A stretch of DNA of 64,000 nucleotides from Staphylococcus phage S6: the sequence record LC680885.1; one strand, 5' to 3'. The notes beneath the pieces were generated by a model. The model had not been told where the DNA came from. It searched no databases and saw nothing but the letters and a program-made list of their open reading frames with translations. The translations under genes were made by a program, and so were the position numbers. Numbering within the stretch: position 1 is the first letter of the stretch; every line of letters starts with the position of its first letter. Shown in pieces: positions 1,915 to 37,196 of the stretch.

Positions 1915-1951
1915 GAGGTAATGACATTAGCTTGTCATTACCTCTAATATA
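1915..1951 (+). repeat. Conserved hairpin element, copy 1 (gaggtaatgaca-ttagct-tgtcattacctc-taatata)
   Basis: 12 bp perfect stem with a conserved 3' flank. Confidence 0.7.
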
Positions 1952-1978
1952 TTTAAATAATAGGAGAGTGTTTTGGAT

Positions 1979-2407
1979 ATGGAAAAAGTTATAGAAAATA
2001 CGGTAAAAGAATTAAGAGAATTGGCAGTAAAAGAAATAGAGTTTTTTGGTGAACCTGAAATAAACGTATTTCATATTAATGGATATACACTTATAAGCTT
2101 AAGTAGAGATTTTTATCTTTTCACATCAGTTAAAGATGATAATAAAGAGATTTTAAACGCATTATTAAAAGATGATTTATTTAATTATTTTGATGAATAT
2201 GATAATAAATTTGGATTTTTCGTATATTATGAAACTGTTGTAGATAAAAAGACAAATAAAAAAGGAGAATGGAAGAATCTCAAACACTTAATAGATACTT
2301 TTGAATGGGAAAATGGAGACCTTTTAGAATTTGTAAAGGAAGAAAATTTATCAGTGAATGAGTCGTTAAAGAAAAAAGAATTAAGAGAATCTACAGAAGA
2401 ATTATAA
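1979..2407 (+). CDS. Hypothetical acidic protein
   Basis: SD taggagagtg 9 nt upstream of ATG 1979. The ORF track starts at TTG 1973. Confidence 0.6.
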   Translation: MEKVIENTVKELRELAVKEIEFFGEPEINVFHINGYTLISLSRDFYLFTSVKDDNKEILNALLKDDLFNYFDEYDNKFGFFVYYETVVDKKTNKKGEWKNLKHLIDTFEWENGDLLEFVKEENLSVNESLKKKELRESTEEL

Positions 2408-2475
2408 AATTGAGTAGAACATATAAGTATCCTTAAGTTCATACAATTTATATGAATTTAGAAAGGAGTAACTAT

Positions 2476-2625
2476 ATGATTACTTGGTTAATAGCTATAC
2501 TAGTAGTTTTATTAATACTAGGTATTATATTCCGTGGACTGTTAGCAGTAATACCACCTATGGGATGGTCTGGAATTGTAGTTGCAATCTTAGTTATATT
2601 AGTAGTATTTTACCTATTCAGGTAG
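2476..2625 (+). CDS. Small hydrophobic peptide (49 aa, 2 TM), not in the ORF track
   Basis: SD gaaaggag 7 nt upstream of ATG 2476. Translation MITWLIAILVVLLILGIIFRGLLAVIPPMGWSGIVVAILVILVVFYLFR. It ends right at a conserved hairpin. Confidence 0.5.
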   Translation: MITWLIAILVVLLILGIIFRGLLAVIPPMGWSGIVVAILVILVVFYLFR

Positions 2626-2630
2626 ATAAA

Positions 2631-2668
2631 GAGGTAATGGCATATTATATGTCATTACCTCTAATATA
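2631..2668 (+). repeat. Conserved hairpin element, copy 2 (stem with a G·U-compatible substitution)
   Basis: gaggtaatggcat-attat-atgtcattacctc-taatata. Confidence 0.7.
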
Positions 2669-2761
2669 TCGCAATTAAAGTATTTTCAAGCATATATTAT
2701 TTAAATGAGATAATGATTATACCAATCATTATCTTTTAATAAAAAACGGGAGGTATAAGGT

Positions 2762-3052
2762 ATGAAAGAATTAACAAGTTCAGTAGAAAAAGCAGCAGGT
2801 ACAAGTTGGAGTGCGTTAGTAACACATCAAGTTTTTATAGGGTTAGGTTTAGTTTTATTAAGTTTAATCGTATTTGCTATTTTGTATTATGCATTTAAAA
2901 AATTAAATGTCATGAATAACTTATCACCTATCATTGTATTGGTAGTTATTTTAGTTATTGGAATTGATTTGGCTTTATTCGGATACGGTTTAATGCATAT
3001 ATTTAATCCAGGATATTATGCATTACAAGAAATTAAAGAAGTCATTAAATAA
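2762..3052 (+). CDS. Small membrane protein (2-3 TM)
   Basis: SD gggagg upstream. Hydrophobic segments are present. A terminator follows at 3075. Confidence 0.6.
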   Translation: MKELTSSVEKAAGTSWSALVTHQVFIGLGLVLLSLIVFAILYYAFKKLNVMNNLSPIIVLVVILVIGIDLALFGYGLMHIFNPGYYALQEIKEVIK

Positions 3053-3074
3053 ATGATTTCAATGAATCAATACA

Positions 3075-3120
3075 ATAATAGATAATAATTAAAAAAGTTA
3101 TTATCTATTATTATTTTTAA
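3075..3120 (+). terminator. Rho-independent terminator
   Basis: 15 bp stem aataatagataataa/ttattatctattatt followed by attttt. Confidence 0.6.
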
Positions 3121-3140
3121 ACTAGGAGAGTGAAATTGAT

Positions 3141-3488
3141 ATGAATAAAGATTATGAAAAAGTAAAGCTAAATTCTATAAATGAAATATTGGGAGGAGTG
3201 GATATTGAATCTTCTTTATATAGATTTTGGGAAATATATAGCAAGAAATATGATGAATATGTTTATTTAGTTTTTGAAGACATAGATTATGAAAATAATT
3301 ATAACAATACAGTTAATATTAAAGGGATATTTAGAATTGACACTTCTGATAAATCTTTATTATTTGAAGATGAATTTACATTCAATAATGTATTGGTAAC
3401 GGATTCAGCTGAGGATTTTGGTATTAGAGTAGATAACTATGCATATGATGATCTAATAAAACATCTAGAGGAAAATAAAATTATTTAA
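3141..3488 (+). CDS. Hypothetical protein
   Basis: SD ggagagtg followed by ATG. Confidence 0.6.
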   Translation: MNKDYEKVKLNSINEILGGVDIESSLYRFWEIYSKKYDEYVYLVFEDIDYENNYNNTVNIKGIFRIDTSDKSLLFEDEFTFNNVLVTDSAEDFGIRVDNYAYDDLIKHLEENKII

Positions 3489-3509
3489 AATTATAGGAGA
3501 TGAATAGAT

Positions 3510-3797
3510 ATGAGAAAAGAATTAAGTGATTATATTAATAAGGAAAAATTGGATGCATTAAGTATATCTTTACAAGGAGATGATTTTGATTCTTTAGAAC
3601 CAAAAGCTAAAGAAGAAGTATTTGAAAAATACTTAAAATTAGAAAAATTACATGTAGAATTTAGATATGAAGAATCATTAAGTAAAATTGCAGAATCTTT
3701 GAAAGATATTTCACGTAAAGAAAATAATTCAGATTCAAGTAATGTAGATAAAGACGCTATTTTATCAGCTTTAAAGAATTTTGCACGTAAAATTTAA
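3510..3797 (+). CDS. Hypothetical protein, paralog of 3817..4074
   Basis: SD ggagatg. Shares a D-x-L-x-A-I/L-S-x-x-L motif with the next ORF. Confidence 0.55.
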   Translation: MRKELSDYINKEKLDALSISLQGDDFDSLEPKAKEEVFEKYLKLEKLHVEFRYEESLSKIAESLKDISRKENNSDSSNVDKDAILSALKNFARKI

Positions 3798-3816
3798 ATA
3801 GAGAGTAGGTAAAACA

Positions 3817-4074
3817 TTGGATGAAATAAGACAAATAGAAAAATATGTAGATGTAGAAAAATTAAATGCAATAAGTAATTATCTCTTTAGAAGCGATTTT
3901 GAAAGTTCTAGATTAGGAGAAGTTCAAAGAAAAGAAGTTTTAGAAGTTTATATGGTAATGGATAAAAATGACATTCAACATTATTTAGCTAAGAAAATTG
4001 AAGAAAATGGAGATAAACTTTGTAATTCTCTAAGTGAATTTGAAGAATTAATAAAAAGGATAAAGGGGATGTAA
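3817..4074 (+). CDS. Hypothetical protein, paralog of 3510..3797
   Basis: TTG start in the track. Similar N-terminal motif (EKLNAISNYLFRSDFES vs EKLDALSISLQGDDFDS). Confidence 0.45.
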   Translation: MDEIRQIEKYVDVEKLNAISNYLFRSDFESSRLGEVQRKEVLEVYMVMDKNDIQHYLAKKIEENGDKLCNSLSEFEELIKRIKGM

Positions 4075-4080
4075 ATTAAA

Positions 4081-4455
4081 ATGAAAAAATTAATGATTTT
4101 AGGTCTAACAATATTTTTAACAGTTATTTTAGCAGCATGTAGTGGTGAAGAAAAGAACCCTAGTGAAGAAACAGCAAAAGGAGATAGTTATAAATTAATA
4201 TATTACGAAATTTTAAATAATGGAGATAGTGATTATCCTAGAGTGGAAATTGCTTATGAAAATAGAATTAAAGAAGTTCAATCCGAATCTATTGATATCG
4301 ATAATTTAATTGAGCATGTCTCAAAAGATCCAAAAGAAAAACCTAAATTAGTTATTGACGGTGATGAGTATCATGTATATAGACAACCTTACATGACTTA
4401 TAATCAAGAAGATATTGAAGGTGAAGTAGAAAGTAAAGAGGAAGTGAAAAAATAA
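4081..4455 (+). CDS. Lipoprotein
   Basis: Signal peptide ending in the lipobox LAAC|SG. Confidence 0.65.
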   Translation: MKKLMILGLTIFLTVILAACSGEEKNPSEETAKGDSYKLIYYEILNNGDSDYPRVEIAYENRIKEVQSESIDIDNLIEHVSKDPKEKPKLVIDGDEYHVYRQPYMTYNQEDIEGEVESKEEVKK

Positions 4456-5051
4456 TGAAAAAGTTTTCTATGATCCTAGTATCAATAATTACATTATTAG
4501 CATTCGTTAGTCAAGATGCATTAGCTATTGGAAGTTCAACTTCCAGTAGTTCTTCATCTTCTTCATCAGTCAGCTCATCTGCATCGAGATCATCAACTTC
4601 ATCAAGTATGAGTTCTTCATCATCAGCAAGTAGATCAGCTATGCAAAGTAGTATGAATGCTCAAAATAATGCTAACAGTGCAAGTAGAAATAGTTCATTG
4701 AACAGTAGTATGAGTAGAAATAATTCATCATTTTCATTAACTAACCCAAATAGTATGTATAATAGAAATAATCAAATGAATTCATATAATTCACAGCTTA
4801 GACAAAGTAATTATATGAATAATATGTTGATGTACTATTTATTATTTAATGGTATTAATAATCAAAATAACTTAAAGAAACAGAAATCAATTTTAATGAA
4901 TCAAATGAATAAAGATCAAAAGTTATATACAGTGACAATTAAAACTAAAGATAATAAAAAGCAATTGTTAACTGTCACTAAAAAGGATTATGATAAAATT
5001 AAAGAAGGAGATACTGTTAAATATTCTAATAATAAATTAGAAATAAAATAA
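4455..5051 (+). CDS. Secreted low-complexity Ser/Asn/Met-rich protein
   Basis: Signal peptide MKKFSMILVSIITLLAFVSQDALA, followed by a poly-Ser stretch and an N/Q/M-rich region. Start overlaps the upstream stop (ATAATGA). Confidence 0.6.
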   Translation: MKKFSMILVSIITLLAFVSQDALAIGSSTSSSSSSSSSVSSSASRSSTSSSMSSSSSASRSAMQSSMNAQNNANSASRNSSLNSSMSRNNSSFSLTNPNSMYNRNNQMNSYNSQLRQSNYMNNMLMYYLLFNGINNQNNLKKQKSILMNQMNKDQKLYTVTIKTKDNKKQLLTVTKKDYDKIKEGDTVKYSNNKLEIK

Positions 5052-5069
5052 TAAAAGGGAGATTATATT

Positions 5070-5441: not shown

Positions 5442-5473
5442 AAATAAAAATAATAATAGGAGATGAATTGGAA

Positions 5474-6250: not shown

Positions 6251-6276
6251 TATTAATATTAGGAGATGAATTAGAT

Positions 6277-9837: not shown

Positions 9838-9875
9838 GAGGTAATGACAAATTATATGTCATTACCTCTAATATA
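9838..9875 (+). repeat. Conserved hairpin element, copy 3
   Basis: gaggtaatgaca-aattata-tgtcattacctc-taatata. Confidence 0.7.
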
Positions 9876-16612: not shown

Positions 16613-16670
16613 AAAGGGATAATTCCAATGAAGATAATATACTTCATTGGAACCCTTTAATTCAAATTTT
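16613..16670 (+). terminator. Hairpin after the recombinase gene
   Basis: aaagggataattccaatgaag...cttcattggaaccctttaa. The T-run is weak. Confidence 0.4.
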
Positions 16671-16680
16671 GGTTCAAATA

Positions 16681-16690
16681 TATATTATAA
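16681..16690 (+). promoter_or_regulatory. TATATTATAA motif upstream of the RNAP beta-C gene
   Basis: Exact 10-mer, then hairpin tgtagaatat...atattctaca, then SD. Confidence 0.35.
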
Positions 16691-16758
16691 GATTGTAGAA
16701 TATTAAGAGCATGATATTCTACAAATATATTCATTATTATAGGAGAGTGTATTAAGAT

Positions 16759-18900
16759 ATGACAAAAGACAAAACACAAAGAATGGTAGAAATTGAAGAT
16801 AAGCGAAGTCATGAGTTTTTATCAGAACCTCTATTAATGCCTAACGTTAATAGAACTAATGGTAACAGATCACAAATGTTTACATCTCACATTGGTCAAT
16901 GTATTCAATTAACTGGAGCTGAACCACCTTTAATTCAAACTGGTTTTGAAAATCAAGTAGGTAAATATTCAACTGGATACAAGAAAGCTAATAGAGATTT
17001 TGAAGTTATTTATAAATTTGAAAAGAATAAGTACGTTAATTACTATTTAATTAAGTACAAAGATAATGATGAATATGATGTAATTATTAGAGAAGAAGCT
17101 AATCACTTAGCTGAGAAGTTCGGAAATAAATATAATAATGATGAAATTGATAAACTAAAAGTTGGAGATACTGTTAGTAAAGAAACTGTATTATTTAAAG
17201 ATCAAAACTATGATGAAGATAATAATTTCCAATATGGTGCTAATGCAACTTCTGTATTCTTACCATTCAAAGGTATGACGAATGAGGACGGAATTGTAGT
17301 ATCAGAATCATTAGCAGAGAAAATGTCAAGTTATTTTGTAAATGTAATCAATATCACTATCAATACAAACGATATTCCTTTAAATTTATATGGAAATGAA
17401 GATGAGTATAAATCATTTCCAGATGTAGGTGAAGAAGTTCAAAATGGAGTATTGTGTGCAACTCGTAGATTGAATTACGATGAGATTATTCATAAATTTA
17501 AAAATGAAATGCTTACTAAAACATTAGAAGATGATAATGCTTATAAAGTTCACGGTAAAGTTATTGATATTGATGTACTTAATAATGAAGATATTGAAAA
17601 ATTAGAAAATCAAAAATATTCAGAGCAATTTGTCAAGTATATTAAAGAATTAAGACACTTTTATAAAACATTTGTAACTGTTACAGATGATATTGTACGT
17701 AAAAAGAAATTTAGTAATGACTTAATTAGAATTCATAATAAATTTAAAGGTTATATTGATGATAACGCTAAATTAGTTTATGACAATAATCAATTTGATA
17801 AAATTATCTTTAGAGTTAAAGTTTTAGAAAAGAAACCTTTAGTTCATGGATCGAAAATCACCACACGCTATGGGGGTAAAGGAGTCGTAGCTGAAATTGT
17901 ACCTGATGATCAAATGCCAATGATCACAGAGTTCGATGGAGAAGACTTCACTAAAGATTCTACTAAAACACCAATTAGTAAACGAGTAGATTTAATCCAT
18001 AATAATATGGGTATCATTAACCGTGGAAATCCATCAGCTTTAATTGAGTTAGAATTAAATCATGTATCAAATGTAATAAGACATCGTATAAGTAAATTAG
18101 ATGATGTTAATCAACAGAAAGAATATCTATTAGGATATATTAAAGATGTAGATAAAATTTCATACGATAATTATGTTAAATTATTTAATCAATTAGATTT
18201 ATCTGAAACTAAAGAAGCTATTAATGAAATTATTAAAGAAGGTATTGTATTACATCAAGCACCATTCTTTGGCAATATTGATTCAGAACAATTAAGATAC
18301 GTATTTAATAAATATAATATTAAGAAAAATAGATTAAATATAAGTAATAGAACATTCATGGTTGGAGATTTATATCACTTAAAACTTAAACATGAACCGT
18401 CTGGTAAATTAAGTGCAAAATCTCTTGACTTTAACAATTACAGTGGAATTCCTACTAGAACTCCAGATAGTAAAAAGTATCTATCAAGAATTAATAATAA
18501 TCCACTTAGAATTGGCGAGATGGAAACATCTAATATGATGATCGGTGGATCTATTAAAGCAATCAATCAATTAACGAATATGTATTCAAATAACCCAGAT
18601 ATGCGTAAACGTTTATTAGTTGAATTGTATACAGGTAATCCATTTAAGATCAATACAGAGAGTATACAAAAACGAACTCAAAATAATAATACTAAAGTAC
18701 TTAATGCTTACTTTAGTCCATTGAATGTTAGTATGACATTTGATGAACCTGAAGAAGATGAATTACTAGATATCATGGATTTAAATGAAGACCAATTAGA
18801 ATTCTTAATGGAAAAATACGAAAATTTAGATGATATCAATGATTTAACACCTCAAGAAATAAATGGTTTAGTTAAAGAAATTATTGAAGAAAGTAAATAA
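16759..18900 (+). CDS. Multisubunit RNA polymerase beta subunit, C-terminal fragment (split beta)
   Basis: NRTNGNRSQMFTSHIGQ resembles NRALMGANMQRQ. TRYGGKGVVAEIVPDDQMP resembles GRHGNKGVxSxIxPxEDMP. LRIGEMETSNMMIGGS resembles GQRFGEMEVWALEAYGA. Confidence 0.8.
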   Translation: MTKDKTQRMVEIEDKRSHEFLSEPLLMPNVNRTNGNRSQMFTSHIGQCIQLTGAEPPLIQTGFENQVGKYSTGYKKANRDFEVIYKFEKNKYVNYYLIKYKDNDEYDVIIREEANHLAEKFGNKYNNDEIDKLKVGDTVSKETVLFKDQNYDEDNNFQYGANATSVFLPFKGMTNEDGIVVSESLAEKMSSYFVNVINITINTNDIPLNLYGNEDEYKSFPDVGEEVQNGVLCATRRLNYDEIIHKFKNEMLTKTLEDDNAYKVHGKVIDIDVLNNEDIEKLENQKYSEQFVKYIKELRHFYKTFVTVTDDIVRKKKFSNDLIRIHNKFKGYIDDNAKLVYDNNQFDKIIFRVKVLEKKPLVHGSKITTRYGGKGVVAEIVPDDQMPMITEFDGEDFTKDSTKTPISKRVDLIHNNMGIINRGNPSALIELELNHVSNVIRHRISKLDDVNQQKEYLLGYIKDVDKISYDNYVKLFNQLDLSETKEAINEIIKEGIVLHQAPFFGNIDSEQLRYVFNKYNIKKNRLNISNRTFMVGDLYHLKLKHEPSGKLSAKSLDFNNYSGIPTRTPDSKKYLSRINNNPLRIGEMETSNMMIGGSIKAINQLTNMYSNNPDMRKRLLVELYTGNPFKINTESIQKRTQNNNTKVLNAYFSPLNVSMTFDEPEEDELLDIMDLNEDQLEFLMEKYENLDDINDLTPQEINGLVKEIIEESK

Positions 18901-18907
18901 ATAAATG

Positions 18908-18947
18908 GGAGTAATGATCATTATTTTGATCATTACTCCTATATTTA
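18908..18947 (+). terminator. Terminator hairpin
   Basis: Stem ggagtaatgatca/tgatcattactcc followed by tatattt. Confidence 0.5.
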
Positions 18948-18953
18948 AAGGAT

Positions 18954-19508: not shown

Positions 19509-19538
19509 TTATTCTTAGATCAAAATTAGTAATAAGTA

Positions 19539-19548
19539 TATATTATAA
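19539..19548 (+). promoter_or_regulatory. TATATTATAA motif
   Basis: Exact 10-mer, then hairpin. Confidence 0.35.
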
Positions 19549-19551
19549 ATA

Positions 19552-19600
19552 TGAGACAATGTTCATTAACTTGATCATTGTCTCATATATTGTTTTATTT
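19552..19600 (+). terminator. Hairpin plus T-run (terminator-like) immediately downstream of a TATATTATAA motif
   Basis: Stem tgagacaatg/cattgtctca followed by tatattgttttattttttat. Confidence 0.5.
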
Positions 19601-26523: not shown

Positions 26524-26970
26524 ATGAAATATTATAAGGTTAATTATAATGGTATATTGAAAATATTGAATCTAGATGATTTTGAAGATGATAGAATTAT
26601 TGAAACACTTAGTAATATTGAGTTATATTTAAAAGAAGATGAAGAAATTAGATTATTGGATTTATTTAAAAAGCCAACTATAGCAATGGACACTCGAATT
26701 ACAAAAGAAAGAGATAACCTTTATATGAATGGTCATCTCTTTTTAGAAGTTGAGAATGCATCATGTAAACTATGGAGTTACCATATTAATTTAAATGGTG
26801 ACGAAACATTAAATGAAATATATGAAAGGATATATAACGGATACGATAAAATTTTCTCTTTTAATAAAATGAGAGAAGATGGTCTATTATTTTTATATGA
26901 ATATGAACATTATACAGAAATATCTGAAAAAGAATATAAAGAAAATAAGGTTAAAGAAAATTTTAAATAA
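26524..26970 (+). CDS. YK-tail family member A1 (MKYY... ...SEKEYKENKVKENFK)
   Basis: Conserved N-terminus MKYYK.N..GI and C-terminal tail shared with 13 other ORFs. Confidence 0.6.
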   Translation: MKYYKVNYNGILKILNLDDFEDDRIIETLSNIELYLKEDEEIRLLDLFKKPTIAMDTRITKERDNLYMNGHLFLEVENASCKLWSYHINLNGDETLNEIYERIYNGYDKIFSFNKMREDGLLFLYEYEHYTEISEKEYKENKVKENFK

Positions 26971-26988
26971 AAAAGGAGATTTTAAATT

Positions 26989-27441
26989 ATGAAATATTAT
27001 ATTTTAACACAACAGGGGATTGCTGAAGTTTTAGGTATTGATAGTGAATCGGTTTATTGCTATAGAAATTTATTTAGAGATGATGAATTATATTTAAAAG
27101 AAGATGAAGAAATTAAATTTTCAGAAATTATTACTAATCAAACACCGGATATAGAATACAAAGTTGTTGGAACAAATAAAGATACCGTAACAGTGATAGC
27201 TTATATGGAAATAGATTTAGGTGAAGGAGATTATCATCAAATTGGATCTTGCAGAATGAAATTAGATAAAGATAGAACTCTAGAAGAAGTATACAATATT
27301 GTATATGAGAAAATGTCCAATAGAACTTTTTCATTCAATAAAGCTAAAGAAATGGGTATATCTTTATATGAAGAGAGTGATTATGAAGAAGTATCTAAAA
27401 AAGAATATAAAAAATACAAAGTAGAGAATAATTTTAAATAA
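26989..27441 (+). CDS. YK-tail family member A2
   Basis: SD aaaaggagattttaaattATG. C-terminal tail SKKEYKKYKVENNFK. Confidence 0.6.
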   Translation: MKYYILTQQGIAEVLGIDSESVYCYRNLFRDDELYLKEDEEIKFSEIITNQTPDIEYKVVGTNKDTVTVIAYMEIDLGEGDYHQIGSCRMKLDKDRTLEEVYNIVYEKMSNRTFSFNKAKEMGISLYEESDYEEVSKKEYKKYKVENNFK

Positions 27442-27461
27442 TGGAATGAGTTGTTATTGTT

Positions 27462-27941
27462 ATGGAAAAATATTATAGATTAACTTTAGAGGGTGTTAGT
27501 TTTATTTTAAATGATTGTGAAGAAAACGATATAGTTAAATCAACTTATAATGAAGATGAAAATTATGTACATTTAGAATCTTTATTAAATGTAGGAATGC
27601 CTTATGAAACTATATATTTTAAAGATAGACATAAAATAGTATTTAAAGAAAATGAAAATATATTCAAGACATTGATAAATTCAATTAAAAATAAATATTA
27701 TGACTTTGATGATAAAAATATGGAATTTCAAGTAGGCATTGGTGATGATGAAATAAAGGTCAAATCACCGATGCCAGTATTTTCTAAAGTGAATATATTT
27801 AATTTTAAAGTTAATAAAGAAATGGACATTATTGATTTTATGGACAATTATAAAATTAATGTATTAATTAAAGATAAGCATTACATTGAAATTACTGAAA
27901 AAGAATATAAAAATATTATAATTAAAAATACATTTAAATAA
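27462..27941 (+). CDS. YK-tail family member A3
   Basis: Tail TEKEYKNIIIKNTFK. Confidence 0.55.
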   Translation: MEKYYRLTLEGVSFILNDCEENDIVKSTYNEDENYVHLESLLNVGMPYETIYFKDRHKIVFKENENIFKTLINSIKNKYYDFDDKNMEFQVGIGDDEIKVKSPMPVFSKVNIFNFKVNKEMDIIDFMDNYKINVLIKDKHYIEITEKEYKNIIIKNTFK

Positions 27942-27957
27942 TAAGGAGATTTTATAA

Positions 27958-28416
27958 TTGAAATATTATGAATTTAATAAAAAAGGAATTATTAAAATAT
28001 TAGGATTAGATACAGCTTATTTAAGAGAAGATGAAGATATTTTTAGAGAAGGAAATCTTTATTTAAAAGAAAATGAATCAATAAAAATAAAAGATATTAT
28101 AACAAATAAAAAAGATATGAAATTTAATTGCAGTCTTTATGAAGGATCTGAAGATAGCTCATTAATGAAAGCTAATTTAACTTTCAGACATGGGTCAGGG
28201 CAACTTTTATTGAATATTGAATATATTGATTTAAAAGAAATAAAAGATCACACTGTTGAAGAAGTTTACAAATACGCTAAAGATTTAGTTTTAAATAAAA
28301 CATTTTCTTTTAATAAAGCTGAAGAGCTTGGTATATGTTTATATGAAGGAAAAGAATATGAAGAAATTACTGAGGAAGAATATAAAAAATACAAAGTAGA
28401 AAATACTTTTAAATAA
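27958..28416 (+). CDS. YK-tail family member A4 (TTG start)
   Basis: aaggagattttataaTTG. Tail TEEEYKKYKVENTFK. Confidence 0.55.
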   Translation: MKYYEFNKKGIIKILGLDTAYLREDEDIFREGNLYLKENESIKIKDIITNKKDMKFNCSLYEGSEDSSLMKANLTFRHGSGQLLLNIEYIDLKEIKDHTVEEVYKYAKDLVLNKTFSFNKAEELGICLYEGKEYEEITEEEYKKYKVENTFK

Positions 28417-28436
28417 TGAAATGAGGTGTTATTGTT

Positions 28437-28886
28437 ATGGACAAATATTATAAATTAACAGCGGAAGGTATATTTGATGTTTTCAAATTAGATAAAAAAC
28501 ACATTATATTCCCAGAAGATAAAAATACAATAATAGATTTCAGATCAAAGGAAGAACGTATAGAGAAAATTAATGAACTTATATACTTTAAAGATAATCA
28601 AGAAATAACAATAAACTCATTATCTAATTTAACAGACAATATCGTAATAGATAAATCAGGTTCTAAATATACATTTAACCATTTAATAGAAATATCATTC
28701 ACTACTTTTAGTCATAAAAAAAGATATAACAAAACAATCAATGTACCGAATGTATTTAAAGGAACTGTAAGAGAAAATAGTAGTAGAAGTGCCTTAGATA
28801 TACCGATAGATATCAACAATATTGATAAAATAGAATTAACATTTAAAGAATATAAAGATCTAGTAATAAAAGAAACTTTTAAATAA
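28437..28886 (+). CDS. YK-tail family member A5
   Basis: Tail TFKEYKDLVIKETFK. Confidence 0.55.
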   Translation: MDKYYKLTAEGIFDVFKLDKKHIIFPEDKNTIIDFRSKEERIEKINELIYFKDNQEITINSLSNLTDNIVIDKSGSKYTFNHLIEISFTTFSHKKRYNKTINVPNVFKGTVRENSSRSALDIPIDINNIDKIELTFKEYKDLVIKETFK

Positions 28887-28902
28887 TAAGGAGATTTTAT
28901 AA

Positions 28903-29352
28903 TTGAAATATTATAAATTAAATAAGGATGGTTATATTAAATTTTTAGGGTTAGATGTTTTGCCTGGACTTAAAACCTCAATTGTTGAAAAAGAAATAAA
29001 AAATAAAAACTTCATTGTCAAATATTGCAATGGAGCAGATTTTTGTTTTACATTAGATGAAATTAATAAAATGAAAAACAAAGATATTTACCCTAAACTT
29101 GGATTTGAAAGTCTAACTGAAAAAGTTAATCATGAAATAGAAAATAATCCAATAGTATTTGTTAATAGAAAATATGAAGATGCTAAAGCTTTAATTCATG
29201 TAGATTTAATTATTAATAATGAAGAAACTACATTAATGACTATGCCAAGATTTAATATTAATTTTTTAAATCATAATTTGTATATGGAACACTTTGATGA
29301 AATAACAGAGAAACAGTATAAAAATATTATGGTAAAAGATTCATTTAAGTAA
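28903..29352 (+). CDS. YK-tail family member A6 (TTG start)
   Basis: Tail TEKQYKNIMVKDSFK. Confidence 0.55.
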   Translation: MKYYKLNKDGYIKFLGLDVLPGLKTSIVEKEIKNKNFIVKYCNGADFCFTLDEINKMKNKDIYPKLGFESLTEKVNHEIENNPIVFVNRKYEDAKALIHVDLIINNEETTLMTMPRFNINFLNHNLYMEHFDEITEKQYKNIMVKDSFK

Positions 29353-29367
29353 AACTCAATTTAAATA

Positions 29368-29377
29368 TATATTATAA
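29368..29377 (+). promoter_or_regulatory. TATATTATAA motif
   Basis: Exact 10-mer, then hairpin gaaagatgtat...atacatctttc. Confidence 0.35.
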
Positions 29378-29446
29378 AATTGTGAAAGATGTATGATACT
29401 TATACATCTTTCTAAAATATTTATTTAAAGAGAGGTGAAAAAGATA

Positions 29447-30893: not shown

Positions 30894-31108
30894 TGTTCGA
30901 GGAAAGTAAAGTACCATTTTCATTTATTTATAAAGAAACTAAATACTTCTTACACAGAAGAAATATTAAGAATTTCCCTAATGGAGATTCTGAATTCTTA
31001 TTGTATGGAGATGAAAATGGGAAGTCATTCATAATAGAAGAAAGTAAATTAGAAAACTTAATTGAACAACATGAAGTTGAAGTATCTTACGAAGAAGATA
31101 TTATTTAA
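30893..31108 (+). CDS. Hypothetical small protein
   Basis: ATG overlaps the upstream stop (gcgtaATG). Confidence 0.45.
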   Translation: MFEESKVPFSFIYKETKYFLHRRNIKNFPNGDSEFLLYGDENGKSFIIEESKLENLIEQHEVEVSYEEDII

Positions 31109-31112
31109 ATAT

Positions 31113-31123
31113 ATATTATTAAA
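31113..31123 (+). promoter_or_regulatory. TATATTATtAA variant motif
   Basis: Precedes conserved hairpin copy 4. Confidence 0.3.
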
Positions 31124-31125
31124 TT

Positions 31126-31163
31126 GAGGTAATGACATACAATTTGTCATTACCTCTAATATA
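31126..31163 (+). repeat. Conserved hairpin element, copy 4
   Basis: gaggtaatgaca-tacaatt-tgtcattacctc-taatata. Confidence 0.7.
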
Positions 31164-32434: not shown

Positions 32435-34057
32435 TTGGGTAATTATTTAAGAAAAATTACGAAGAATATACAAGATGAGGTCAGTACAAAAGAGTCATTT
32501 AATGAGGATGTAATATACTTTAGGGAGAATGAAAACCTAGAAGATATTATATCTGATATTTACAAATCAGTAGAATTTATTAAAGGCGTAAAATTCATTG
32601 ATTGTAAAGTTGTTCCTCCAAGTGAAGTTTATGAGTACAATCAAATGACAGACAAACAATTTAAAGCAAGAGATTTTAGAAAAATCAACGTAGAAGAATC
32701 AAAACTATTAGAAGTTCAAATTACTGTAGAATTTGAATCAGCTGAAGGGGAAAAAGAATTATACACACATAAATTAGATTTCCCTGAACTTATAGAAGGT
32801 CAGTATTATTATATTAATGATAATAAGTTCTTCCCTATCTTACAATTAGCTGATACTGAATTCTATAAACCTAAAGCAAGTACAGTAGTAATGAAAAACT
32901 TATTACAACCATTATCAGTAAATGGTTCTAAAAAAGATGAACTTATTGATGATGATAAGAAAATGCCTAAGAAGTTAAGAGGTAGAACATTATACTTAGA
33001 AGTATTTAATAAAAATAAACCTGTTCCAGCATTTTTATTCTTTATTGCTAAAATGGGTCTAGATGAAACATTTGAATTCTTAGATATTAAAGAATATTGT
33101 GAATTAGTAGATACCAACGATGAAAAAGATGATGAACACTACTATTTTAGAATTAATAATAAAATAACTATTCAAGTTGATAAAGAATGGTTAGATCAAG
33201 ACGATAGATATAGAACTTCTATGGTCTTATGTATTAAAGATTTATTTAAAGGTATGAGAGCAGGATTAGATAAAGTATATGATAAAGAATTCTGGCTTAA
33301 GAATTTAGGATCTGTATTTAGTGGTTCTACTAACGTTGACACTAAAATTGAAAAATCTAATTCTATGATTTTATCATTTGATAGAATTTTAGATAGTCGT
33401 ACTAAAAATATTTCTAGATTAGATCCAGAAGATAAAGAATCAACTTATCATGTAGTTAAATACATGTTTAAAAACTTTGATAATCTTAATTTATTAGATA
33501 ATACAGATTTAGCTAATAAACGTTTAAGAGTATTAGAATACTTAACTTATCCACTGAATAGAAAGAACTCTGATACATCTTATCGTATGATTAATTTCAC
33601 AGATAAGAAACGTACAATTAAAAATCTTAAAGGATTATTCTCAGGTGTACCTCGTGATTTCTTATTAAAAACTATAGGAACATCTGAAGGAATTAGATAT
33701 TCCAATGCAGTTAATACAATTGACTTATTTACTAGAATTCTTAAAATGACTAAAGCAGGTCCACAAACTGCTGTTGATACTAGTAAACCATCTATTAGAA
33801 CTATTAATATCAATAATACTTATTTCGGTAGAATTGATTTAATAGCAACATCTTCAAACAATCCAGGTATTACACGTACATTAACACCATTCTGTGAGGT
33901 TAAAGATCCTGGTGAGAATGGTTCATTCTATTTTGAAAATAAACCTAACATCAGAGAAAATATTGACACAGATAATTTAGATAAACTAGAGAAAGAATCT
34001 GAAGACAATGAAGTTGTATTAGATATTAAAGAAATTGTAGAAGAGGATGACGAATAA
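32435..34057 (+). CDS. Multisubunit RNA polymerase beta subunit, N-terminal fragment (split beta)
   Basis: [25 protein letters not shown] resembles beta [46 protein letters not shown] resembles [31 protein letters not shown] resembles [20 protein letters not shown]. TTG start with SD aaggagag. Confidence 0.7.
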   Translation: [540 protein letters not shown]

Positions 34058-35367
34058 TGGCTAGATTTTTACTTAAGAATAAAGACTTATCAAAATTACC
34101 AGTAGTAACAAATCATGAATCAATTGATAAGAAAGGTGATTTCACTGAAGACGGTATCTTCAGTGAGAAAATCTTTGGACCTGATTCAGATGTAGATAAT
34201 ATTACAAATGAAGCTATAGTTTATTTAGGTAATAACTATATTATTACACCTTTAGGATATGACAGAATTAAAAAATTAATAGGTAGAAAAAGATTTGCTG
34301 AAATTATTAGTTCTGAAAAACCTATTGATGAAAATGGTAATGTAATTGAACCAGAAGATGACCATAATTCATATATTGGTTTAGTTGAATTTAGAAAGAA
34401 CTTCTTAAAGATTCTTAAAGAAGAAGTTAAACGTGATAAACGTAAAACTAAAGATTACAATAGAGTTGTTCAATGGTATTTAAATGGAACATTATTCCAA
34501 AATTATGTAACTGTATTTAGTCCTAAATTAAGACCGGCTACAGTTAATAAAGCAACTAAGACATTTAGACATTCAGAAATTAATAAAGAATTTAATTTAT
34601 TAATTGCTCATAGTAATAGTCTTAAAGAATTAGATGAACATTATACAGATGATTCAGTTGAACTACAAAAGTTAAACCTACTTAATAAAATTCAAGATGA
34701 CAACATGAATATCTATGATCGTATTATCAATGAAAACATTAAAGGTAAAATGGGTACTATTCGTAAATTAATTATGGGTAGTCGTGTAGGATATTCAGCT
34801 CGTTCAGTAATTGTTCCAGCTCCTGATTTAAAATTAAATGAAATTAGAATGAATTATACAATCTTCTTAGAAATATACAAACCACTATTAGCTAATTTAA
34901 TGTATGTAACGGAAAATATTCCATTACCTAAAGCAGAAGAAATATTAGGTAGAGCTTTAGATAACTTTAATCCTAAAGTATATAAATATATGAAAGAATT
35001 AGTTAACAAAACTGAAGGTGGAATGAGAGTAATTTTGAACCGAAATCCATCTATCTCAGAATCATCAGTTCAAATATTAAAAATTAAAGATATCATTAGT
35101 GATATTGACTCAGCTGTAGTAGGTATTAGTAATAATATACTTGCAGGTATGGGTGCTGACTATGATGGAGACACATTGAATATTATAGCTCTCTTCTCAG
35201 AAGAGCAATATGATATGTTAAAAGTACAAGATCCAGTCAATCAATTAATATCATATAATGATGGTCTATTTAATAGAACTTATTCACTTAATAAAGACTC
35301 ACAGATTGCAGTTTATTTATTAAATAATCCTAAATCAAAAGATGTAAGTATAAAAGCTAGTAAATAG
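34057..35367 (+). CDS. Multisubunit RNA polymerase beta' subunit, N-terminal fragment (up to ~70 aa past the catalytic DFDGD)
   Basis: DGIFSEKIFGP resembles beta' DGLFCARIFGP. GSRVGYSARSVI resembles GKRVDYSGRSVI. GADYDGDTLNI resembles NADFDGDQM. ATG overlaps the upstream stop (translational coupling). Confidence 0.8.
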   Translation: MARFLLKNKDLSKLPVVTNHESIDKKGDFTEDGIFSEKIFGPDSDVDNITNEAIVYLGNNYIITPLGYDRIKKLIGRKRFAEIISSEKPIDENGNVIEPEDDHNSYIGLVEFRKNFLKILKEEVKRDKRKTKDYNRVVQWYLNGTLFQNYVTVFSPKLRPATVNKATKTFRHSEINKEFNLLIAHSNSLKELDEHYTDDSVELQKLNLLNKIQDDNMNIYDRIINENIKGKMGTIRKLIMGSRVGYSARSVIVPAPDLKLNEIRMNYTIFLEIYKPLLANLMYVTENIPLPKAEEILGRALDNFNPKVYKYMKELVNKTEGGMRVILNRNPSISESSVQILKIKDIISDIDSAVVGISNNILAGMGADYDGDTLNIIALFSEEQYDMLKVQDPVNQLISYNDGLFNRTYSLNKDSQIAVYLLNNPKSKDVSIKASK

Positions 35368-35374
35368 ATTTTTT

Positions 35375-35410
35375 AGAATAACGGTCTTATCAGATCGTTA
35401 TTCTTATTAA
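35375..35410 (+). terminator. Terminator hairpin after beta'-N
   Basis: gaataacggtc...gatcgttattc followed by ttattaaat. Confidence 0.45.
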
Positions 35411-35435
35411 ATAAATATGACTGGAGACATTGACC

Positions 35436-36068
35436 ATGAACAAAAGACAAAGAAAGAAATTAGAGAAGAAAAAATTAGAAGAACAAAGTAACGAAAAAAT
35501 TATAGATTTGCCAAAATTAAAAGAAGAAAAGGATGAAGTTAAAATGAATAAAGAAGTTAAAAGAGAAGGATCTTACAAGAAATTAACTAAGGAACAAGTA
35601 CATTATATTGCAGAATTAATTGACAAAGGACACGGAAACACTTATATTTTAAAAGAACTTAAAGCTAAGTTTGGTATTGACCGTAAATCACATTCAATCA
35701 CACATATTAGACGTGGTGAACATCCTACATTTAAAGCACTTACAGATGACAATTATCACTTTGCTGAAGTGGGATATCCTACATTTAATGAATACAAAAA
35801 GATTTTACGTGGAGAAGTTAAACCTAAAAGTAAAACACGTGTAAAAGCTGAAGAAAAGGTTAATAAAGTAAAAGAATCACCAGTAGTAGAAAAAGTATCT
35901 AATGTTACAGAAGAAAAAGTAGAACAAGTAAAAGAAAAAATGAGTAATATTCAAAAAGATAAAGAAACTGGTAAAGAATATCGTGATAAAGAAAGTATTC
36001 ATAAAGCAGGTAAACCTCAAGAAACTATCTTTGATAAGATTATCAAACGTGTTTTAAATATTTTATAA
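35436..36068 (+). CDS. Basic DNA-binding-like protein; HTH-like domain paralogous to 12445..13053
   Basis: Lys-rich N- and C-termini around a shared central domain. The track start is TTG 35430. Confidence 0.5.
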   Translation: MNKRQRKKLEKKKLEEQSNEKIIDLPKLKEEKDEVKMNKEVKREGSYKKLTKEQVHYIAELIDKGHGNTYILKELKAKFGIDRKSHSITHIRRGEHPTFKALTDDNYHFAEVGYPTFNEYKKILRGEVKPKSKTRVKAEEKVNKVKESPVVEKVSNVTEEKVEQVKEKMSNIQKDKETGKEYRDKESIHKAGKPQETIFDKIIKRVLNIL

Positions 36069-36086
36069 TAGAAAAGATGATAAGAA

Positions 36087-37139
36087 ATGTCCAAATATGA
36101 TTTAACTTTATATCATCATTTAAAACAAGAAGTAAAACCATGTAGATTAACAACTTCACAGGATGAGACAATGATACGTTGTCCTTTCTGTGGAGATTCT
36201 AAAAAGTCTAAAAGTTCAACACATTTATATATACAAAATAGAACTCCATTTAAATATTTCTGTCAAAGATGTAATGCTTCTGGAGTTATGAGTAATAAAG
36301 TTTTAGCTATGTTAAATAGTGGTAATGTAGAAATAAATAGTTATATTAACAATCAATATAATGAATATATTTCTAATATGAATAAAAAATATGGCAAATC
36401 TTTTATCAATAGAAATACAAAAGAATTAAAATACTACCCAAATAAATATACCGATTTAGAAATAAGCAAGATTAATTATATTAATGAAAGATTGGGTATT
36501 AACATAGATGAGAAGGATATTGAATTATATAAGATTATTTTAAATATAGAAGATTTTTATAAGAATAATGAATTTGATATAGATAATCAATATCAAATAA
36601 ATAATCTTAATAATAATTATTTTAGTTATATGTTGAACGATAAGAACACTATTAATTGTAGATTAATGAATAGTGACACATTTGGGGCTAATGGGAAGAA
36701 ACATTTTAAACAAAAAATATTTAAGAATTTAGCTGATGAAAGTACTAGATTTTATTCAATTAAGAATGAATTAAGATTGGATAGAAGAGTATATAATATT
36801 CATATAGCTGAAGGATTCTTTGATATATTGGGGATATTTAATCATGTGTATAATAAAGAAATAAATGACAATGATATATTTATAGCTAATAACGGAAAAG
36901 GTTATAAATTTGTATTAAATTATCTAAATAGTTTAGGTATACTTAATATGAATATAAATATTTATTCCGATAGAGATGTTAAAATTACTGATTATCGCAG
37001 TAAGAGAATGCTCGGTAATTCGCTACCAGTAATTTTAAATGATGCTAATATATATTATAATGAATTTGAAGATGAGAAAGATTTTGGGGTAACAAAAGAT
37101 AAAATAAAATTATCAGAACCAATTAAGTTTAATCAATAA
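36087..37139 (+). CDS. DnaG-like DNA primase (zinc ribbon + TOPRIM)
   Basis: Zinc ribbon CPFCGDS...CQRC. TOPRIM-like EGFFD (HIAEGFFDILG) and DxD (YSDRDVKITD). Confidence 0.5.
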   Translation: MSKYDLTLYHHLKQEVKPCRLTTSQDETMIRCPFCGDSKKSKSSTHLYIQNRTPFKYFCQRCNASGVMSNKVLAMLNSGNVEINSYINNQYNEYISNMNKKYGKSFINRNTKELKYYPNKYTDLEISKINYINERLGINIDEKDIELYKIILNIEDFYKNNEFDIDNQYQINNLNNNYFSYMLNDKNTINCRLMNSDTFGANGKKHFKQKIFKNLADESTRFYSIKNELRLDRRVYNIHIAEGFFDILGIFNHVYNKEINDNDIFIANNGKGYKFVLNYLNSLGILNMNINIYSDRDVKITDYRSKRMLGNSLPVILNDANIYYNEFEDEKDFGVTKDKIKLSEPIKFNQ

Positions 37140-37146
37140 ATAAATT

Positions 37147-37156
37147 TATATTATAA
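37147..37156 (+). promoter_or_regulatory. TATATTATAA motif
   Basis: Precedes conserved hairpin copy 5. Confidence 0.35.
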
Positions 37157-37160
37157 AAGT

Positions 37161-37196
37161 GAGGTAATGGATATTATATTCATTACCTCTAATATT
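37161..37196 (+). repeat. Conserved hairpin element, copy 5 (G·U-compatible substitution)
   Basis: gaggtaatgga-tattata-ttcattacctc-taatatt. Confidence 0.7.

Follow-up and report, generated by a model that had tools for sequence, protein, structure and literature searches.

A hairpin family at gene boundaries and predicted early transcript starts of a Staphylococcus jumbo phage: a possible transcript-boundary stem-loop

Why should one hairpin recur five times in a phage genome with nearly the same stem, and at which level does it act? The copies lie between positions 1915 and 37196 of the 64,000-nucleotide stretch of DNA analyzed here (the window), and a sequence-only reading had taken them for RNA elements with a sequence-specific partner, be it a terminator or pause signal, an RNase processing site, or the binding site of a phage protein. 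The source is an AR9-like Staphylococcus jumbo phage with 98.0% identity to Staphylococcus phage PALS_2, MarsHill and AR9 being further relatives, and it has two multisubunit RNA polymerases (RNAPs), virion and non-virion.

Five hairpins and the virion RNAP promoter

All five copies lie on the plus strand, at the positions first read for them, and are oriented in gene sense. Copy 1 (1915-1951) has a 12-bp stem, a 6-nt loop, and a TAATATA flank; copy 2 (2631-2668, with flank) is a G·U variant; copies 3 (9838-9875) and 4 (31126-31163) are likewise given with their flanks; and copy 5 (37161-37196) has a 13-bp stem with G·U, a 3-nt loop, and a TAATATT flank. Their RNA folds reach -17.9, -18.0, -16.4, -17.3, and -14.7 kcal/mol, respectively, with z-scores of -6.0 to -8.0, the latter for copy 1, which scores 54.9 bits on the plus strand and 47 on the minus strand with the R1 model. 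Allowing at most two mismatches, GAGGTAATGACAT gave 11 matches (both arms and both strands counted) versus 2.3 expected, a number equaled in none of 100 shuffles, and CATTACCTCTAATATA is exact in four copies, with one mismatch at 37181. Copies 2631 and 37161, whose A-to-G changes were said to pair in the plus-strand transcript only, indeed stay G·U paired there (-18.0 and -14.7 kcal/mol) and leave an internal mismatch on the minus strand (-13.5 and -10.7 kcal/mol).

Three copies had been described as following a TATATTATAA motif. A motif is present before all three, although it reads TATATTATTA, not TATATTATAA, before 31126. By match to the AR9 consensus, the TATATTATAA motif corresponds to the early promoter of the virion RNAP, AAATATATATTAT-N6-G(+1); the sequence-only reading missed this identity of the TATATTAT motif and the start of the hairpin at its predicted +1. 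In AR9, the early promoter AAATATATATTAT-(6N)-G+1 was mapped by dRNA-seq and primer extension, and in MarsHill, the TATATTAT motif precedes 29 genes. On the plus strand of the window, the exact consensus lies at 1896-1908 and 31107-31119, with predicted +1 at G1915 and G31126, and AAATTTATATTAT, with one mismatch, lies at 37142-37154, with predicted +1 at G37161. Each time, the promoter motif is followed by a 6-nt spacer and the first G of the stem, at which we infer from the AR9 mapping that transcription starts; the literature searched yielded no RNA-end data on any Staphylococcus jumbo phage. Since these three copies begin at the predicted +1, a 5′-terminal element is the leading reading there, over a terminator or pause site.

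The promoter consensus is absent before 2631 and disrupted before 9838, which is preceded by the promoter-like stretch AAATATATAAGTTAAATAAAGAT. Both copies had been placed directly after a stop codon; ORF 2452-2625 ends 5 nt ahead of the 2631 copy, which has the next early promoter 20 nt downstream, and the 9838 copy is not directly behind its stop but 33 nt beyond it (ORF end 9804). Copy 2 is kept in PALS_2 and MarsHill, copy 4 and its promoter are kept in PALS_2, MarsHill, and SA1, and the SA1 orthologue of copy 5 has a compensated stem.

Coliphage N4 resembles this phage in having a virion-delivered polymerase and early promoters with a hairpin, which in N4 is a DNA hairpin of 5 to 7 bp upstream of +1 and itself the recognition element. 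An N4-type hairpin promoter was rejected, the hairpin here being at +1 to +30, 12 to 13 bp long, and absent from the homologous AR9 promoters.

The hairpin at +1 across promoters and genomes

A hairpin starts from +1 or +3 at 12 of the 14 intergenic early promoters of the window. The family of the five copies amounts to about 12 members per genome, and each of the nine Staphylococcus jumbo phages sequenced has it; the window also has diverged members at 2707, 18906, 19553, 35373, and 39123, as well as nine additional promoter-linked hairpins with other sequences. None of the hairpins reached the gathering threshold of a family in an Rfam scan of the window.

The sites listed here are all on the plus strand. 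The early promoter AAGCATATATTAT and a diverged family hairpin at +1 (2707; GAGATAATGATT..AATCATTATCTT) occupy 2688-2735. An unrelated +1 hairpin (GTAGAATATTA..TGATATTCTAC) follows the early promoter located 5′ of the non-virion RNAP beta gene (16676-16722), and its MarsHill and SA1 orthologues stay paired via G·U and double changes. The early promoter at 19534-19584 has the family member at 19553 as its +1 hairpin (GAGACAATGTTCA..TGATCATTGTCTC); in MarsHill, a promoter-less family hairpin, GAGGTAATG, occupies this site. Other early promoters with a +1 hairpin are at 39499-39546 (GAAGATATAAT..ATTATATCTT) and 45192-45236 (GAGATTAATAA..TTATTAATCTC), and the hairpin begins from +3 at 29363-29412, 40533-40580 (AGAAAGATA..TATCTTTCT), 41233-41280 (AGAAAGAG..CTCTTTCT), and 50489-50535 (AGAAAGATAT..ATATCTTTCT). 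The two exceptions without a +1 hairpin are the early promoters at 39194-39213, with a ribosome-binding site from about +4, and at 49290-49309. At orthologous promoters, the hairpin persists and its sequence turns over: MarsHill has another hairpin sequence at the 29363 site, PALS_2 and MarsHill carry different hairpins at the 40533 site, and PALS_2 and SA1 do so at the 45192 site.

Genome-wide, a strict stem finder, with a background of 2 to 3% at random G starts, found a hairpin directly behind 23/35 early promoters in PALS_2, 23/36 in MarsHill, and 20/35 in SA1. In the same three genomes, the strongest hairpin within the first 70 nt begins at +1 in 18/35, 18/36, and 17/35 cases, respectively; it begins at +3 in 1 to 5 of the ~35 promoters per genome and almost never beyond +4. 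Each genome of the Staphylococcus jumbo phages has ~35 early promoters, and about one-third of them are without hairpin. The virion RNAP promoters of AR9 have the same 13-nt consensus, 6-nt spacer, G at +1, and AT-rich context but show no +1 hairpin at any of 34 early promoters, and none was found at the 9 early promoters in the first 50 kb of Listeria phage LPJP1. From the sequences compared, the fusion of the hairpin to a virion RNAP promoter is specific to the Staphylococcus clade, and this promoter-plus-hairpin design, at about two-thirds of early promoters, is without earlier description. Hairpin leaders have their Shine-Dalgarno sequence at +44 to +46 versus +23 in AR9, the AR9 leaders being ~22 nt shorter, and the Staphylococcus leader is roughly an AR9-type leader plus the hairpin. 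Position +2 is A or T at all but 1 to 3 of the ~35 promoters per genome.

Covariation, strand asymmetry, and the level of action

The search for the stem was extended beyond the five copies, and the compensatory changes were tabulated in an alignment of 38 distinct family members (12 stem pairs, 454 stem cells). All 454 cells pair, and double, compensatory changes occur at 8 of the 12 pairs, in 56 cells compared to 14.2 in shuffles, with 0/500 shuffles reaching 56. G·U occurs in 19 cells of these stems and A·C in none; in 60 distinct promoter-linked hairpins, G·U outnumbers A·C by 23 to 3 (p = 9e-5). Because all cells pair, with compensation and with G·U in the family without A·C, the hairpin is a structure under selection on the sense strand, most simply as RNA, in agreement with what the two A-to-G variants had suggested. 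The non-compensatory stem changes named beforehand as evidence to the contrary were found once, in LY01, where the orthologue of the 9838 copy is degenerate. A G·U asymmetry would also be expected if the non-template strand of uracil-containing phage DNA extruded the hairpin.

An element acting at the DNA level could be a palindromic cassette that recombines or moves like a PeSL (promoter-early stem-loop), a cruciform aiding or regulating the virion RNAP promoter, or the operator of a DNA-binding repressor of early promoters. Presence/absence and swap differences between close relatives would fit: MarsHill lacks the 9838 copy (sequence read), which is apparently absent from Madawaska as well (shortened BLAST match only) and present without promoter in AH12, and the 19553 site has a different hairpin with or without promoter among relatives. 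Moreover, cassettes come in families, +1 to +30 is where a repressor is expected, and uracil in DNA allows G·U wobble in an extruded non-template strand. Nevertheless, neither a site in duplex DNA nor a symmetric cruciform is expected to show G·U to A·C ratios of 19:0 and 23:3, loops of 3 to 8 nt and stems that differ between promoters are incompatible with a dimeric operator, and in AR9, promoters with this consensus function in the absence of a hairpin, so that we regard a DNA-level element as highly improbable. The PeSL cassettes of T4-type phages are similar in being small, repeated, intergenic units that join an early promoter to a stem-loop behind the stop codon and ahead of the Shine-Dalgarno sequence, where small early genes cluster; they are associated with indels and swaps that set close relatives apart (PMC2839356, PMC4122927). 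In the Staphylococcus phages, sites compared singly gave one presence/absence case (9838) and several exchanges of hairpin. In PeSL, however, the stem-loop is rich in G/C tracts, is a proven terminator, and lies upstream of or within a sigma-70-type promoter, before the start site and thus outside the transcript of that promoter. The hairpin described here is at +1, lacks a U tract, and belongs to a virion RNAP promoter; its position downstream of +1 and this promoter type led us to reject the PeSL class.

If the structure acts as RNA, the GAGGTAATGACA stem and TAATATA tail could form a sequence-specific site, either for a host or phage nuclease (RNase Y cutting the AU-rich tail, or an enzyme of the RNase III type, with SP82 as precedent) or for a phage RNA-binding protein that times the translation or the stability of some messages. 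An RNase III site of the SP82 type takes about two helical turns of duplex RNA and is cleaved in a staggered manner; the SP82 sites have longer duplexes, with mapped cleavage, compared to stems of 12 to 14 bp here, which are short for RNase III. Across the 38 members, stem positions 5 and 7 to 9 are invariant and the tail is conserved to at least 90% at T38/A39, and the family is kept in 9/9 Staphylococcus jumbo phages, with a near-identical stem in the distant LPJP1. RNase Y is known to cleave AU-rich single strands beside secondary structure (PMC3997798), and RNase III sites in the early mRNA of SP82, a Bacillus phage, are likewise conserved, repeated stem-loops of a Gram-positive phage early region (references in PMC4838370). 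Against such a site, most of the sequence is free, as 8/12 stem pairs vary by compensation, and no candidate protein was found. The specific partner first suggested by the sequence identity of the copies is not supported in that form, since unlike hairpins fill the same promoter position and replace each other at orthologous sites, and since ordinary terminators of the phage form equally repetitive sequence families, an identity that can stem from duplication or gene conversion. Altogether, a sequence-specific RNA site seems quite unlikely.

Gene ends, read-through, and a proposed role

Another explanation is that the hairpins are plain transcription terminators for the virion and/or the non-virion RNAP, with a 5′ location devoid of function: an A/U-only tail would suffice, rU:dA and rA:dU hybrids both being weak on uracil-DNA, and the promoter would be squeezed between stop codon and terminator merely for compactness. 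All tandem copies are indeed stable gene-sense stem-loops 0 to 35 nt 3′ of a stop codon. About half of the family has no promoter and sits close 3′ of stop codons, including copies between convergent genes (PALS_2 120865 and 171295) and 3′ of the terminase gene (MarsHill 60112), and the MarsHill GenBank record annotates two members as terminators (93048-93082 and 229468-229507). On the plus strand of the window, promoter-less relatives follow immediately the stop of ORF 16759-18900 (18906-18949, GGGAGTAATGATCA..TGATCATTACTCC; 37.7 bits with the R1 model) and that of ORF 34057-35367, which encodes the beta′ subunit of the non-virion RNAP (35373-35414, AGAATAACGGTCT..AGATCGTTATTCT; 33 bits), and the relative at 39123-39166 (GGATAATGATCA..TGGTCATTATCC; 44.4 bits), with a true T run, is an ordinary terminator-type member. 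In LPJP1, a related hairpin with a near-identical stem has a classical T10 run, which points to terminator ancestry, and AR9 gene-end hairpins have the RRRRTAAYGA stem as well.

The tails, however, differ from those of ordinary terminators. Intrinsic terminators of the same phage group (window 39119, 54913, and 55689; LPJP1 4582-4625) are alike in gene-end position and stem length and have the RRRRTAAYGA stem flavor, the AT-only loops, and the repeated families in common with the five copies, but they carry runs of 4 to 10 T right behind the stem, where the five copies have TAATATA(T/C), with T runs of 1 to 3 as in most family members. There is thus no U tract directly behind the stem in the five copies, which weakens the canonical terminator as a candidate. 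More generally, the 8 nt after the stem hold 3.4 T in promoter-linked hairpins versus 5.2 in other gene-end hairpins, and T runs of at least 4 follow 17% of the former versus 59% of 223 of the latter (p = 3e-10). These A-rich tails with few T runs would make poor canonical terminators, and hence read-through is possible. Moreover, an efficient terminator 30 nt past a conserved promoter would abort its own transcripts, and the terminator explanation does not account for a start pinned to +1 or +3. Nor does it account for the +1 hairpins at 4/7, 4/8, and 5/8 promoters of divergent intergenic regions, with no co-directional upstream gene, or for those behind already terminated genes, as the promoters 16676 (distinct gene-end hairpin at 16623-16652, just 5′) and 2688 have their own gene-end hairpin upstream. 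We therefore consider plain termination an unlikely explanation.

We propose instead, with a probability of about 0.5, that the hairpin is a transcript-boundary stem-loop, which would shield early mRNAs at their 5′ end, with a second use as a gene-end hairpin. At 1915, 31126, and 37161, where it is fused to the virion RNAP promoter and begins at the predicted 5′ end, transcription starting at the first stem G would make the early mRNA begin as a hairpin, born with 12 to 13 bp of stem and zero unpaired 5′ nucleotides. RNase J1 requires a free 5′ end. The most likely job of such a 5′-terminal hairpin would be to shield early phage messages from 5′-end-dependent decay. Among known 5′-terminal stabilizing stem-loops is the T7 gene 10 leader hairpin. 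RppH requires at least two unpaired 5′ nucleotides, the Bacillus subtilis enzyme (BsRppH) also a G at position 2, and long downstream mRNA is stabilized in B. subtilis by a hairpin located at the 5′ end or close to it (PMC3997798). The leaders of Escherichia coli ompA and papA and of B. subtilis aprE likewise have a hairpin with 0 to 2 unpaired 5′ nucleotides, followed, as here, by an AU-rich unstructured spacer and a strong ribosome-binding site, an arrangement that blocks access of RppH, RNase E, and RNase J (PMC3997798). Unlike these single-gene leaders, the phage hairpins, for which stabilization is a prediction, are fused to about two-thirds of one promoter class of a phage multisubunit RNAP, form repeated families, and double as gene-end hairpins.

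The 5′ role cannot be the whole story, as a promoter, and with it a predicted 5′ end at the hairpin, is lacking in two of the five copies (2631 and 9838) and in about half of the family. Where the cassette lies directly behind an upstream stop, the same hairpin would come near the 3′ end of the read-through transcript of the upstream gene, on which it could protect the 3′ end and act as a weak insulator; the promoter-less copies would be the gene-end form of the same module. The promoter-plus-hairpin design probably protects and separates early messages. Nevertheless, AR9 and LPJP1 do without +1 hairpins in hosts with similar RNases, and the need for protection is therefore not obvious.

A more speculative idea, to which we give little credence, is that the +1 hairpin, instead of passively stabilizing, labels early transcripts as self or controls the early program of Staphylococcus jumbo phages, being read by a phage factor. 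If true, early messages could be spared from a phage-induced nuclease that shuts off host mRNA; other roles could be to time the shut-off of virion RNAP transcription or to help this polymerase to escape or to go on where others stop. The structure read could be RNA or extruded uracil-DNA, with the GAGGTAAYG/TAATATA family as its high-affinity form.

As a side observation, a group II intron domain at 1449-1532 is the sole Rfam match in the window.

Distribution and sense-strand constraint of the hairpin family

In a comparison of its first 20 kb, the window (GC content of ~24%, genes nearly all on the plus strand up to 55.7 kb) was 98.0% identical to PALS_2 and 96.4% identical to vB_SauM-UFV_DC4, with MarsHill, Madawaska, LY01, AH12, Machias, PB50, and SA1 as more distant matches. 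These relatives are AR9/PBS1-like jumbo phages of ~260 kb that have two multisubunit RNA polymerases, one virion and one non-virion (bioRxiv 10.1101/2020.12.14.422802), and we analyzed PALS_2, MarsHill, and SA1 as whole genomes. The five hairpins of the sequence-only reading, starting at 1915, 2631, 9838, 31126, and 37161, were all located on the plus strand, with RNA folds of -14.7 to -18.0 kcal/mol and z-scores of -6 to -8. The feature is therefore real and the structural half of that reading correct; its count of five was incomplete, further diverged members of the same family (the GAGGTAATG family, also the GAGGUAAUGACA hairpin) being present in the window. At up to two mismatches, the stem 13-mer occurs 11 times with both arms counted, against 2.3 expected, and none of 100 shuffles had as many. 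The copy at 9838, which had been placed directly behind a stop codon, lies 33 nt from it.

The search for more copies yielded ~12 members each in PALS_2, MarsHill, and SA1. For covariation, 38 distinct members were aligned and pairs counted over the 12-bp stem, the collecting pattern neither demanding pairing nor constraining stem positions 10 to 12 in any way. Standard pairs fill 454 of 454 stem cells, and 8 of the 12 pairs changed on both sides (e.g., G-C to A-U at the base and U-A to C-G at position 8). Double-change cells number 56, compared with 14.2 in shuffles (0 of 500 reached 56), and the covariation score is 0.418 versus 0.167 shuffled, with slid registers at 0.093 or less. The earlier argument that A-to-G variants keep pairing in the plus-strand transcript only was right, the minus-strand fold being 4 kcal/mol weaker in the two copies concerned (-13.5 and -10.7), and it is far stronger than two cases: the 38 members hold 19 wobble cells (G·U or U·G), 13 of them at one unconstrained pair (position 10, alignment columns 12-25), and A·C cells are absent. 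Since the pattern did not demand pairing, the covariation and the 19:0 wobble asymmetry demonstrate that the structure is under sense-strand selection. On the G·U asymmetry alone, RNA and an extruded non-template DNA strand cannot be told apart because the phage DNA contains uracil, RNA being the simpler reading; an action of the hairpin at the DNA level is very improbable in view of its strand asymmetry and variable loops. The operator of a dimeric DNA-binding protein was ruled out, as neither loop length (3-8 nt) nor stem sequence is constant from promoter to promoter.

BLAST with promoter plus hairpin as query found no family member outside nine Staphylococcus jumbo phages, in which 8-13 places per genome were counted over both strands, and no Rfam family covers the element. 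Scanning IMG/VR and GTDB genomes with GAGGTAAYG-N(6-20)-CRTTACCTC, for which chance alone should give ~500 hits in 596 Gb, yielded 109 and >120 loci, all of them lacking the promoter, the flank, and any low-GC jumbo-phage context; by expectation and missing context, we rejected them as chance matches. These scans showed no link of the hairpin to Staphylococcus host genomes. Within the phage group, the copy at 9838-9868 is dispensable. It is absent from MarsHill (sequence read at 245900-246010) and apparently from Madawaska, as judged from a shortened BLAST match only; it is present in AH12 without promoter and with a different upstream gene, and it is decaying in LY01, with one C·A mismatch and the loss of 1 nt. 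The 19553 site holds the GAGGTAATG hairpin without promoter in MarsHill and a promoter plus a different hairpin in the window.

Hairpins at the early promoters

The early promoter of the AR9 virion RNA polymerase was defined by dRNA-seq and primer extension as AAATATATATTAT-(6N)-G+1 (PMC5312081), and an AR9-type early motif lies upstream of 29 MarsHill genes (bioRxiv 10.1101/2020.12.14.422802). By its sequence, the TATATTAT motif noted earlier in front of three copies is a predicted promoter of this type, and the AR9 definition thus applies to three of the five copies. The 13-mer promoter is exact at 1915 and 31126, where the motif actually reads TATATTATTA before the latter copy, and has one mismatch at 37161. 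In all three, the first stem base is the G right after the 6-nt spacer, so that these hairpins constitute the predicted 5' end of early transcripts, transcription being presumed by analogy with AR9 to start at the stem G (+1).

This arrangement extends well beyond the family. In the window, a hairpin begins at +1 or +3 behind 12 of 14 intergenic early promoters, with stems unrelated in sequence (e.g., GTAGAATATTA, GAAAGATGTATGA, GAAGAAAGAG, and GAGATTAATAA). With a strand-symmetric stem finder, for which a hairpin had to begin at +1 to +4 and contain 7 or more Watson-Crick pairs, hairpins were detected at 23/35 early promoters of PALS_2, 23/36 of MarsHill, and 20/35 of SA1, versus 2-3% of random G starts in PALS_2, MarsHill, and AR9 (119, 106, and 87 of 4000); none was detected at the 34 early promoters of AR9 or at the 9 in the first 50 kb of Listeria phage LPJP1. 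Of the hairpins in the first 70 nt, the strongest begins at +1 in 18/35, 18/36, and 17/35 promoters of PALS_2, MarsHill, and SA1 and at +3 in 5, 3, and 1, other starts being almost never seen. Among 60 distinct promoter-linked hairpins, 23 G·U positions stand against 3 A·C positions (P = 9e-5). Orthologous promoters keep the hairpin, its sequence being exchanged or compensated: at 16695, the window has GTAG..CTAC, MarsHill GTGG..CTGC, and SA1 TGGAATAGTA..TACTATTCCA, and the hairpins at 29384, 40552, 45211, and 50508 differ between phages.

Hairpin-bearing leaders have their start codon at +57 to +59, behind a Shine-Dalgarno sequence at +44 to +46, compared with +34.5 and +23, respectively, in AR9; hence, the Staphylococcus leader resembles that of AR9 extended by a hairpin on the 5' side. 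An N4-like promoter hairpin was ruled out by the position of the hairpin, downstream of +1, and by its absence from AR9 promoters. Papers on MarsHill, DC4, AR9, phiKZ, and 201phi2-1 and a review of jumbo-phage RNA polymerases do not mention a hairpin at early promoters. The promoter-plus-hairpin design is thus undescribed so far and specific to one clade, for which it gives a simple sequence-defined rule, the early promoter leading straight into a hairpin; AR9, the experimentally studied relative, is without this rule.

Several other features of these promoters were observed. The 6-nt spacer is A-richer in PALS_2, MarsHill, and SA1 (0.6) than in AR9 (0.47), and position -1 is T in 33/35, 33/36, and 29/35 of their early promoters, respectively. 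Three early promoters clustered within 39-41.3 kb each have, 12-13 nt upstream, a conserved AAAAAGCGTAAC(A/G)T box (39477, 40511, and 41211, plus strand), which recurs at their orthologues in PALS_2 and MarsHill; it could serve a subset of promoters as an upstream element or as the site of a regulator. From the opposite strand, the promoter and hairpin together resemble a good terminator (hairpin then AUUUUUAUAAU), and antisense transcription might therefore be stopped by the cassettes as well. A minus-strand early promoter in the TAATATAT flank was rejected, its reverse complement AAATATATTAG being two bases short and off-consensus; in AR9, a single deviation kills an early promoter (PMC5312081). 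Direct reading of the element found no AR9 late-promoter motif (AACA-N6-TW). In read-through RNA, promoter ATATATTA could additionally pair with flank TAATATAT, yet this is not required, because promoter-less copies keep the flank.

Gene-end copies and the terminator question

About half of the family members are promoter-less, 0-35 nt behind a stop codon. Members lie between convergent genes (PALS_2, 120865 and 171295) and behind the terminase gene (MarsHill, 60112), and two are labeled terminators in the MarsHill record. Each genome has ~70 gene-end hairpins, many of which end in a clear T run (in the window at 3074, 14907, 39119, 44420, 50865, 54913, and 55689). Compared with 223 promoter-less gene-end hairpins, promoter-linked hairpins have fewer T (3.4 versus 5.2, P = 3e-10) and more A (4.4 versus 2.4) in the 8 nt past the stem, a T run of at least 4 in 17% rather than 59%, and a mean energy of -13.4 rather than -17.9 kcal/mol. 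The tail of the GAGGTAATG family is TAATATA(T/C) or TATTATATTG with T runs of 1-3, promoter present or absent, and the element lacks the U tract of intrinsic terminators.

Hairpins at +1 occur in tandem context (19/25, 17/25, and 14/25 promoters) and also at divergent intergenic promoters into which no co-directional gene reads (4/7, 4/8, and 5/8), and the promoters at 16676 and 2688 already have a separate gene-end hairpin upstream. These observations speak for a +1 hairpin that is not just the terminator of the upstream gene and that would let the adjacent promoter read through. A pure terminator for the phage polymerases is an unlikely reading.

The family covariance model retrieved further relatives: one with a true T run in the window (39123), one in LPJP1 (4582-4625) between convergent genes (AAGGTAACGATCA..GTTACCTC then T10), and weaker RRRRTAAYGA-type gene-end stems in AR9 (L011, 19767-19812; L010, 15081-15121). 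These relatives suggest that the module probably descends from an old lineage of terminator hairpins of this phage group. The purine-rich RRRRTAAYGA stem is common to gene-end hairpins of the distant relatives LPJP1 and AR9. Ordinary gene-end terminators also form repeated families, such as ATCCCCTAACCTTATTAATTTAAGGTTAGGGGAT and ATCCCAATACCTA..TAGGTATTGGGAT (window 55689-55722; many sites in L001-L006, L012-L017, and L247-L252), with loops biased to TTAATTT or AAATTAA; repetition of hairpin sequences is thus a general habit of these genomes.

Proposed protective role and neighboring features

To our knowledge, jumbo-phage virion RNA polymerases are poorly understood, with little known about the fate of their transcripts; our literature search found no published transcript ends for Staphylococcus jumbo phages. 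In Bacillus-type decay, a hairpin at or near the 5' end stabilizes long stretches of downstream mRNA, BsRppH needs a minimum of two unpaired 5' nucleotides and G at position 2, and RNase J1 attacks free 5' ends (PMC3997798). A stem beginning at +1, or at +3 after GA or GT, would be exactly what evades this RppH/RNase J1 pathway, and position +2 is A or T in all except 1-3 of ~35 promoters per genome. We propose, from this fit, that the promoter-linked copies may be stem-loops protecting early messages at the 5' terminus. As the cassette lies between a stop codon and a ribosome-binding site, the hairpin also comes near the 3' end of read-through RNA from upstream, where it could give 3' protection and insulate weakly, as could the promoter-less copies. 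We infer all functions of the hairpin, and to the overall reading of a 5' protective stem-loop doubling as a gene-end hairpin we give a probability of about 0.5. The invariant core and conserved tail would suit a site for a sequence-specific RNase or protein, which we nevertheless consider rather improbable given the free covariation of the stem and its replacement by unrelated hairpins.

In its action, the element may be likened to the 5' stabilizer hairpins of ompA and aprE. Its genomic layout is similar to that of the PeSL cassettes of T4-type phages, but the element falls outside the PeSL definition, since PeSLs have their stem-loop upstream of a sigma-70-type promoter's start. If 5' protection is true, the design would show how a phage shields its first messages and offer a compact, portable promoter-plus-stabilizer module for Staphylococcus; if the hairpin attenuates or is read by a factor, it would provide a handle on early-gene timing. 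Annotation is also corrected, as these hairpins are mostly unannotated and the few annotated ones are called terminators.

Other features of the window deserve mention. An Rfam group II intron match (domain V/VI, 66.4 bits against a gathering score of 40) at 1449-1532 on the plus strand is the probable 3' end of an intron whose ORF (97-1446) fills the window start; in this phage group, introns are known to interrupt RNA polymerase genes. One 35-nt hairpin (AGACCTAATGGAC..GTTCATTAGGTCT) is present twice, at 40804-40838 and 41436-41470, its flanks being identical over at least 24 nt and 16 nt, which indicates local duplication of a promoter-gene unit of ~630 bp. Six successive plus-strand ORFs of 148-159 aa at 26524-29352, without intergenic promoter or hairpin, are by appearance a candidate tandem paralogue array. 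Finally, GC skew and AT skew change sign at ~55.7 kb, where genes turn from plus to minus, and this convergent junction carries a strong bidirectional hairpin (55689-55722).
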